DNA from: a virus
Taxonomy: Duplodnaviria > Heunggongvirae > Uroviricota > Caudoviricetes
Direction: 5' to 3' (one strand)
IMG/VR virus record: IMGVR_UViG_2529292723_000011
DNA length: 43,489 nt
Below the pieces are notes generated by a model. The model saw nothing but the letters and a program-made list of their open reading frames with translations, was not told where the DNA came from and ran no database searches. Below, one piece after another: positions 34,744 through 38,130 of the stretch; the stretch's first letter is position 1, and the number at the start of each line of letters is the position of its first letter. Both the position numbers and the translations under genes were made by a program.

Positions 34744-37700
34744 ATGGGTAAAGGCAGCAGTAAGGGGCATACCCCGCGCGAAGCGAAGGATAACCTGAAG
34801 TCCACGCAGCTGCTGAGTGTGATCGATGCCATCAGCGAAGGGCCGATTGAAGGTCCGGTGGATGGATTAAAAAGCGTGCTGCTGAACAGTACGCCGGTGC
34901 TGGACAGTGAGGGGAATACCAACATCTCCGGTGTCACGGTGGTGTTCCGGGCCGGTGAGCAGGAGCAGACACCGCCGGAGGGATTTGAATCCTCCGGCTC
35001 CGAGACGGTGCTGGGTACGGAAGTGAAATATGACACGCCGATCACCCGGACCATCACGTCTGCAAACATCGACCGTCTGCGCTTTACCTTCGGCGTGCAG
35101 GCACTGGTGGAAACCACCTCAAAGGGGGACCGGAATCCGTCGGAAGTCCGCCTGCTGGTTCAGATCCAGCGTAATGGTGGCTGGGTGACGGAAAAAGACA
35201 TCACCATTAAGGGCAAAACCACCTCGCAGTATCTGGCCTCGGTGGTGGTGGGTAACCTGCCGCCGCGCCCGTTCAATATACGGATGCGCAGGATGACGCC
35301 GGACAGCACCACAGACCAGCTGCAGAACAAAACGCTCTGGTCGTCATACACCGAAATCATCGATGTGAAACAGTGCTACCCGAACACGGCACTGGTCGGC
35401 GTGCAGGTGGACTCGGAGCAGTTCGGCAGCCAGCAGGTGAGCCGTAATTATCATCTGCGCGGGCGCATTCTGCAGGTGCCGTCGAACTATAACCCGCAGA
35501 CGCGGCAATACAGCGGTATCTGGGACGGAACGTTTAAGCCAGCATACAGCAACAACATGGCCTGGTGTCTGTGGGATATGCTGACCCATCCGCGCTACGG
35601 CATGGGGAAACGTCTTGGTGCGCGATGTGGAAAATGGGCGTGTATGTATCGGCCAGATGCGACAGTCGTGCCGGACGGTTTGGCGGCACGGAGCCGCGCA
35701 TCACCTGTAATGCGTACCTGACCACACAGCGCAAGGCGTGGGATGTGCTCAGTGATTTCTGCTCGCGATGCGCTGTATGCCGGTATGGAACGGGCAGACG
35801 CTGACGTTCGTGCAGGACCGCCGTCGGATAAGGTGTGGACCTATAACCGCAGTAATGTGGTGATGCCGGATGATGGCGCGCCGTTCCGCTACAGTTTCAG
35901 CGCCCTGAAGGACCGCCATAATGCCGTTGAGGTGAACTGGATTGACCCGAACAACGGCTGGGAGACGGCGACAGAGCTTGTTGAAGATACGCAGGCCATT
36001 GCCCGTTACGGTCGTAATGTCACGAAGATGGATGCCTTTGGTTGTACCAGTCGGGGGCAGGCACACCGCGCCGGGCTGTGGCTGATTAAAACGGAACTGC
36101 TGGAAACGCAGACCGTGGACTTCAGCGTGGGTGCTGAAGGGCTTCGCCATGTACCGGGCGATGTCATTGAAATTTGCGATGATGACTATGCCGGTATCAG
36201 CATCGGCGGGCGCGTGCTGGCGGTGAACAGCCAGACCCGGACGCTGACGCTCGACCGTGAAATCACGCTGCCATCTTCCGGCACCACGCTGATAAGCCTG
36301 GTTGACGGGCAGGGGAGTCCGGTCAGCGTGGAGGTCCAGTCCGTCACCGACGGCGTGAAGGTGAAAGTGAGCCGTGTTCCTGACGGCGTTGCAGAATACA
36401 GCGTGTGGGGGCTGAAGCTGCCGACGCTGCGCCAGCGCCTGTTCCGCTGCGTGAGTATCCGTGAGAACGATGACGGCACGTATGCCATCACCGCCGTGCA
36501 GCATGTGCCGGAGAAAGAGGCCATCGTGGATAACGGGGCGCACTTTGACGGCGACCAGAGCGGCACGGTGAATGGTGTCACGCCGCCCGCGGTGCAGCAC
36601 CTGACTGCCGAAGTCACCGCAGACAGCGGGGAGTATCAGGTACTGGCCCGCTGGGACACGCCGAAGGTGGTGAAGGGCGTGAGCTTTATGCTTCGCCTGA
36701 CCGTGGCCGCGGATGAAGGCATTGAGCGGCTGGTCAGCACGGCCCGGACGGCGGAAACCACATACCGCTTCACGCAACTGGCGCTGGGGAACTACAGGCT
36801 GACAGTCCGGGCAGTAAATGCCCGGGGACAGCAGGGAGACCCGGCGTCGGTATCGTTCCGGATTGCCGCCCCGGCAGCGCCGTCGCGGATTGAGCTGACA
36901 CCGGGCTATTTTCAGATAACCGCCACGCCGCATCTTGCGGTTTATGATCCGACGGTACAGTTTGAGTTCTGGTTCTCGGAAAAGCGGATTGCGGATATCA
37001 GGCAGGTTGAAACCACAGCCCGCTATCTTGGTACGGCGCTGTACTGGATAGCCGCCAGTATCAATATCAAACCGGGCCATGATTATTACTTTTATATCCG
37101 CAGTGTGAACACCGTTGGCAAATCGGCATTCGTGGAGGCCGTCGGTCGGGCGAGCGATGATGCGGAAGGTTACCTGGATTTTTTCAAAGGCAAGATAACC
37201 GAATCCCATCTCGGTAAAGAGCTGCTGGAAAAAGTCGAGCTGACGGAGGATAACGCCAGCAGACTGGAGGAGTTTTCGAAAGAGTGGAAGGATGCCAACG
37301 ATAAATGGAATGCCATGTGGGCTGTCAAAATTGAGCAGACCAAAGACGGCAAACATTATGTCGCGGGTATTGGCCTCAGTATGGAGGACACGGAGGAAGG
37401 CAAACTGAGCCAGTTTCTGGTTGCCGCTAACCGTATCGCGTTTATTGACCCGGCAAACGGGAATGAAACGCCGATGTTTGTGGCGCAGGGCAACCAGATA
37501 TTCATGAACGACGTGTTCCTGAAACGCCTGACGGCACCCACCATTACCAGCGGTGGCAGTCCTCCGGTATTTTCCCTGACATCAGACGGAAAGCTGACCG
37601 CTAAAAATGCGGATATCAGTGGCAGTGTGAATGCGAACTCAGGGACGCTCAACAATGTCACGATTAATGAGAACTGTCAGATTAAGGGGAAACTGTCAGC

Positions 37701-38130
37701 CAACCAGATTGAAGGTGATATTGTCAAAACGGTCAGCAAGTCTTTCCCCCGCACGAACAGTTATGCCAGTGGCACCATCACGGTAAGAATCAGTGATGAT
37801 CAGAAATTTGACCGGCAGGTCATGATACCGCCAGTGTTATTCCGCGGTGGTAAGCATGAGAATTTCAACAGTAATAACCAACAGTCATACTGGTATTCAA
37901 CCTGCCGGTTAAGAGTGACCCGCAATGGTCAGGAGATTTTTAATCAGTCCACGACGGATGCTCAGGGCGTATTTTCCTCCGTTATAGATATGCCTGCCGG
38001 ACAGGGGACGCTGACACTGACATTCACCGTATCTTCATCAGGAGCGAATAACTGGACACCAACAACCAGTATCAGCGATCTGCTGGTTGTGGTGATGAAA
38101 AAATCCACAGCAGGTATCAGTATCAGCTGA
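34744..38130 (+). pseudogene. J: Central tail fibre / host-specificity protein J, frame-disrupted between about 35610 and 35800 (pieces 34744-35721, 35565-35804, 35743-38130), with a C-terminal receptor-binding region divergent from lambda
   Basis: The three ORF-track pieces each carry lambda-J-matching sequence in alternating frames (1, 0, 1); outside this stretch the gene is near-identical to lambda J until the last ~150 residues. Confidence 0.8.

Follow-up and report, generated by a model that had tools for sequence, protein, structure and literature searches.

The stretch of DNA analysed here (the window; 43,489 nucleotides, IMG/VR record IMGVR_UViG_2529292723_000011) is, taken as a whole, a lambdoid prophage. 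Long stretches show ~96-97% identity to temperate coliphages such as PhiR30_1, PhiR34_1, 2H10 and Turner, and the first 3 kb match prophages in the chromosomes of enterotoxigenic Escherichia coli such as ETEC-2264, the closest chromosomal relative of the window, at 99.9% identity. The open reading frames (ORFs) of the tail operon follow the order L, K, I, J, lom, stf, tfa, and the position of J, preceded by L, K and I and followed by lom and stf, agrees with the annotated genomes of lambda, 2H10, 434 and ETEC-2264. In E. coli ETEC-2264 (NZ_CP023349; 445-3033 of the compared locus), an IS66-family element (tnpA, tnpB and tnpC) lies between the tail assembly gene and J; this insertion is absent from the window. 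With regard to the left end, phage matches and most E. coli prophage matches start at approximately base 346, three E. coli records match from base 1, and in these three an IS21-like IstB gene is annotated next to the integrase over the matched 3 kb; the first 346 bases may be insertion-sequence DNA rather than prophage.

The gene for J, the tip attachment protein or central tail fibre, occupies 34744-38130 on the + strand, as judged from the ORF list, nucleotide identity and Pfam. Over its full length it shows 96% nucleotide identity to the J genes of PhiR30_1, 2H10 and Turner, and an intact product would comprise 1132 amino acids, as in lambda and 2H10. The single frame of ~1130 codons that characterizes a lambda-type J is, in the window, split at 35623-35820, and the gene appears in the ORF list as two ORFs, 34744-35721 and 35743-38130; this split had gone unmentioned in the initial annotation. 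Across both pieces, six J-specific domains all score above the Pfam cut-offs and stand in the same order as in lambda (FNIII-A_GpJ, Phage-tail_3, Ig_J, Ig_J_second, Phage_Tail_Tip and Ig_GpJ_C). Two parts of the gene can be distinguished. The first (34744-37650, + strand) is lambda-like in its Pfam domains and in its nucleotide identity, which is 86-100% per 90-nt bin, and it comprises the hub domains, the FNIII/Ig domains, the helical shaft and most of the beta-prism shaft. The second (37651-38130, + strand) is an exchanged receptor-recognition module of 159 amino acids plus the stop codon, carrying the allele of A8, 2H10 and phi330. Within it, the Ig-like C-terminal receptor-binding domain proper, Pfam PF12421 (Ig_GpJ_C), lies at 37753-38127 on the + strand (hmmscan E = 3e-36, residues 671-795 of the 795-aa ORF). 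Based on this position and on the structures of the lambda tail bound to LamB (PMC11101478), the exchanged block consists of the last layers of the fibre shaft together with the entire Ig-like receptor-binding domain.

The boundary between the two parts was located by nucleotide alignment of J in the window with J of lambda (NC_001416) and J of phage 2H10, scored in 90-nt bins. Identity to lambda J remains at 86-100% per bin up to J column 2880, falls to 79% in columns 2881-2970 and then stays at 44-58% until the stop codon, whereas identity to 2H10 J is still 97-100% over this lambda-divergent stretch. In the protein alignment, divergence begins at lambda S974, which is replaced by N in the window (37651-37653), and the divergent stretch comprises 159 residues (37651-38127). 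Identity to lambda is 95% over the 60 residues directly upstream of the junction. Beyond it, up to the C-terminus, 71 of the 154 aligned positions match (46.1%), and the alignment contains 10 gap columns, which are concentrated in loop regions. The G+C content falls from about 0.59-0.66 in mid-J to 0.45-0.49 in the divergent stretch. The divergence is real, sharply bounded and far above allelic noise. The initial annotation had described a J near-identical to lambda over most of its length and divergent in roughly its last 150 residues, and both statements agree with our measurements (~90-100% DNA identity up to ~37650, followed by 159 residues at 46% protein and 44-58% DNA identity); the peptide strings that it quoted are also present in the translation of the + strand ORF ending at 38130. 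It had placed the divergent region at 37600-38130, the end of which holds; the start was set ~50 nt too early, as the break is at 37651.

With an identity of only 46.1%, the stretch lacks the close resemblance to lambda residues 974-1132, including the receptor loops, by which a lambda-type LamB-binding module would be recognized. Normal variation within lambda J, together with a continued need for LamB, had been named in the initial annotation as the outcome that would overturn its proposal, and the abrupt drop from 95% to 46% in the alignment does not fit such variation. A reading of the difference as ordinary allelic drift of the lambda LamB-binding domain could appeal to the fold and the Pfam family, which are the same as those of lambda, and to the motifs GDIVK, FDRQ, DMPAG and KK..GIS, which the window and lambda have in common. 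However, the identity collapses at one point, together with indels and a fall in G+C, genuine lambda-type alleles group apart, at 45% identity, and the receptor has been found experimentally to be different for A8 and phi330, as described below. We therefore give drift practically no credence.

The closest structural relative of the module was found by a sequence search of the PDB with a 219-aa query, in which the best match was the chain 'A8 gpJ 713' of entries 9wca and 9wcb (E = 1.6e-139); next in rank were chains of lambda J, which, as expected, showed low identity towards the C-terminus. All 159 residues of the module are identical to A8 gpJ 713, and the only three differences in the query are located upstream, in the lambda-derived part of the construct. 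When OmpC of E. coli K-12 was used as the query, three chains of outer membrane porin C were found in entry 9wcb as well. A literature search found no publication behind 9wca or 9wcb, and the co-presence of A8 gpJ and OmpC in 9wcb is therefore taken from the two PDB sequence searches alone.

As described by Brödel et al. (Nature 2024, PMC11338833), A8 gpJ carries the C-terminus of a natural E. coli prophage J that was used in lambda-derived delivery particles. In that study, residue 964 of lambda J served as the fusion point for natural J C-termini, and a recipient lacking lamB was used to screen the resulting chimeras (PMC11338833). A8 delivered a reporter to ~95% of the cells of an MG1655 lamB/ompC double mutant with plasmid-borne OmpC-MG1655, compared with ~2% for wild-type lambda J, and delivery was efficient with 21 of the 23 OmpC variants by A8, by a second chimera (1A2) or by both (PMC11338833). 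The DNA of A8 given in the supplement, which is machine-read and garbled, matches the divergent block of the window at 454 of 471 nt, corresponding to ~96-98% once machine-reading errors are allowed for, and the DNA of 1A2 from the same supplement has no match to the block. In A8 gpJ, the engineered fusion was made at lambda residue 964, slightly ahead of the natural junction in the window (residue 974). A8 gpJ is, however, an engineered protein whose body is entirely that of lambda J, whereas the J body in the window is natural, shares ~95% identity with lambda, has three substitutions within the last 60 residues ahead of the junction and carries a frameshift patch farther upstream.

Evidence from an infecting phage comes from the Stx2a siphophage vB_EcoS_phi330 (J in PV189401; PMC12502783), the module of which is nearly the same as that of the window (157 of 159 residues, or 98.7%, and 98.5% nucleotide identity). 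As in the window, lom stands next to J in phi330, but its J body is far more diverged (Pankowvirus; 83% in the 60 upstream residues) and the rest of its genome differs. Phage phi330 caused no lysis on BW25113 ompC::kan, the sole such case among 54 Keio outer-membrane mutants, and its infection of the ompC mutant was restored by Plac-ompC (PMC12502783). The same study reported an identity of only 35-40% among the receptor domains of lambda, 434 and phi330, and found that 434 and phi330 are unlike in the hairpins predicted to contact OmpC (PMC12502783). In the accessible text of PMC11338833, we found no test of A8 in a LamB-positive strain without OmpC, and this gap is filled by phi330 only.

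Because the module is identical to that of A8 and nearly identical to that of phi330, and not because of its family membership, we assign OmpC as the predicted receptor. The 3' end of J (37651-38130) is thus very probably an A8-type receptor-binding module, a non-lambda allele directed at OmpC and not at LamB. The initial annotation had suspected a swapped receptor-binding domain, which is borne out by a block that covers PF12421 and is identical to A8 gpJ, and had deduced a receptor other than LamB, with which the use of OmpC by the identical A8 module and the 98.7%-identical phi330 module is in accord. This swapped module is already known: functional tests and a solved structure exist for it, and the allele is common, widespread and already described.

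The nearest distinct allele is that of phage 21 (J in OL657228), which is 81.8% identical over the 159 residues, equal in length and free of gaps. The phage 21 ancestor has been reported to use LamB only, with the use of OmpC one J mutation away and the use of OmpF following by J mutations (PMC11336670). As this relative, 82% identical, is a reported LamB user that gains OmpC by a single mutation in J, receptor choice is labile inside the clade of phage 21 and A8, and the module of the window might by the same token still use LamB, alone or with OmpC. Against this, the window differs from the phage 21 allele at 29 of the 159 residues and represents a sister allele rather than a phage 21-type module; moreover, the identical A8 module works in an OmpC-dependent manner in a lamB-deleted strain, phi330, with two differences, is blocked by the deletion of ompC alone while lamB is present, and a structure entry with A8 gpJ and OmpC has been deposited (9wcb). 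We therefore regard continued use of LamB by this module as very improbable and retain OmpC as the predicted receptor. A literature search for receptor data on the PhiR/ECOR set of lambdoid phages (PV3405xx) found nothing relevant, and a 2026 receptor-prediction preprint did not cover lambda-type J modules.

Phage 434 (J in OL657226) provides the classical example of a lambdoid tip that uses OmpC, the receptor also of the A8 type. The 60 residues upstream of the junction are identical in 434 and the window, and the lom allele downstream is the same, whereas the 434 module is 47.4% identical, with 11 gap columns and extra loop residues, and the module of the window is not of the 434 type. Relative to 434, the receptor module alone differs between these shared neighbours. 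Immediately after J, a terminator-like hairpin (GGCGTCA-GAAA-TGACGCC followed by a T run) can be read from the sequence at 38149-38172 (+ strand); phages 434 and 21 have an annotated terminator at the homologous position, and the hairpin region can be aligned to 434 and 2H10, though not to lambda. It is followed by a gene for a lom-like outer-membrane protein of 199 amino acids (38197-38796, + strand), which is of the 434/2H10 allele: the gene is near-identical to the 434 and 2H10 alleles, and its product has 45% amino-acid identity to lambda Lom. The block that diverges from lambda runs from J through the terminator and most of lom to ~38725, and identity to lambda resumes only in the last ~75 nt of lom. 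As the window carries the lom allele of 434 without the receptor-binding domain of 434, the receptor module and lom assort independently.

When the 164 C-terminal residues of J were searched against translated phage genomes, the matches fell into discrete identity clusters, at 98-100% (2H10, PhiR29_2 and many Stx1a and Stx2a phages), ~82% (phage 21, mEp460 and 1H12), ~79% (BP-4795), ~62% (several Stx2a phages) and 45-48% (434, cdtI and lambda itself). At the amino-acid level, the module matches 2H10 completely (100%) and phi330 almost completely (98.7%); its identity to phage 21 is 82%, and that to lambda and 434 is 46% and 47%, respectively. All lambdoid J alleles compared have in common the motif ADISG(S/N)VNANSGTL just before the junction and KK..GISI at the C-terminus, and diverge between the two. 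Since the alleles are alike at both flanks and divergent between them, the module is best described as a recombination cassette that is exchanged at conserved flanks. The A8-type allele is carried by 2H10, phi330, YYZ-2008, CP-1639 and many long-tailed Stx prophages, and it occurs at 98-99% nucleotide identity in dozens of deposited phage records. Prophages of enterotoxigenic E. coli such as ETEC-2264 match the receptor block exactly. Among complete E. coli genomes, 687 records hold the 480-nt block at an identity of at least 99% and 820 further records hold it at 95-99%, which places the allele at at least 95% nucleotide identity in ~1,500 complete-genome records; some match to the 480-nt block is present in 2,859 of 5,426 complete E. 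coli genomes.

How the module would act can be pictured from the structures of the lambda J receptor domain on LamB (PDB 8xcj/8xck and 8iyk; PMC11101478), which belongs to the same family, with the same domain order, an Ig-like C-terminal domain and a target of the same class, a trimeric porin. In lambda J, the C-terminal Ig-like domain lies below the beta-prism shaft and inserts four loops in the porin, and the Ig-like domains spread apart, which triggers opening of the tail (PMC11101478). Lambda J differs from J of the window over the last 159 residues (46% identity and 10 gap columns) and in its receptor, which is LamB and not OmpC; the triggering mechanism is presumed to be common to both. 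By analogy with these structures, the module in the window would form the trimeric Ig-like tip of the central tail fibre, and, as for the identical or 98.7%-identical protein elsewhere, it would bind the trimeric porin OmpC rather than the maltoporin LamB. Its bottom loops would dock onto the porin trimer, and a rearrangement of the fibre might then open the tail tip.

Whether the copy in the window can yield a full-length J depends on whether the patch that interrupts the gene is real. Compared with J of lambda, 2H10 and ETEC-2264, this patch (35623-35820, + strand) contains ten deletion events, amounting to 12 nt in total, and no insertions; it introduces a stop codon at 35719-35721, and the sequence past 35820 is again in the J frame. 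Compared with the ETEC-2264 prophage, K has one 1-nt deletion at 33914 and stf has twelve 1-nt deletions at 39159-39481, as a result of which K and stf, like J, are each split into two ORFs. All 25 missing bases are deletions, with no insertions, and they fall at the single K site and in two patches of at most 330 nt. The patches in J and stf each sum to 12 nt, a multiple of three. Substitutions are not raised in the patches relative to the intact J of ETEC-2264, and the deletions are not located at homopolymers. The J deletions are missing from all complete E. coli genomes, in which the closest match reaches 97.7% (601 nt versus 613 nt), and an exact 70-mer across the J patch is absent from the GTDB species representatives. 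Because the changes are deletions only, tightly clustered, away from homopolymers and without extra substitutions, local base-calling or assembly error is favoured, and the patches more likely reflect such error than decay. That they are real, as products of an unusual local mutational process or of selection for tail inactivation in an otherwise well-conserved prophage, seems improbable.

If the deletions are real, no full-length J would be made, the module would be silent and the prophage would be tail-defective. Taken at face value, the 12 deleted bases of J with their in-frame stop at 35719-35721, the K deletion at 33914 and the stf deletions at 39159-39481 would describe just such a relic, in which the copy in the window engages no receptor. 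We consider this unlikely, though it deserves some weight: the clustered, deletion-only pattern without raised substitutions suits base-calling or assembly error better than decay, and the receptor-binding part is 100% identical in protein sequence to functional alleles. Moreover, the question bears on the present activity of this copy and not on the identity of the module, which in either case we assign to the A8 type.

The receptor module of J sets the outer-membrane protein that the phage requires, and hence the strains that it can infect and the route by which hosts become resistant. The OmpC specificity of the A8 allele has already been exploited for gut delivery vectors, as OmpC stays expressed in the gut and lamB is readily down-regulated. 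For the window, the practical value of the assignment lies in the annotation, with OmpC and not LamB as the predicted receptor; the receptor module adds nothing new to phage biology.

A second fibre gene is encoded farther downstream. We considered a side tail fibre with the OmpC-binding tip of lambda and dropped this candidate, since only a 66-residue segment is shared and the distal part is unrelated. The side tail fibre gene (39293-41818) shares this segment of 66 residues with lambda Stf (orf-314); as its distal part is unrelated to lambda Stf, the target of the side fibre is presumably not that of lambda, and the distal part is presumably receptor-binding. Beyond it, two tfa-like ORFs, at 41821-42354 (+ strand) and 42383-42910 (- strand), face each other tail to tail. 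This arrangement suggests an invertible fibre-tip segment or its remnant, the window ending before any position at which an invertase could stand; in phage 2H10, an invertase is located just downstream of tfa.
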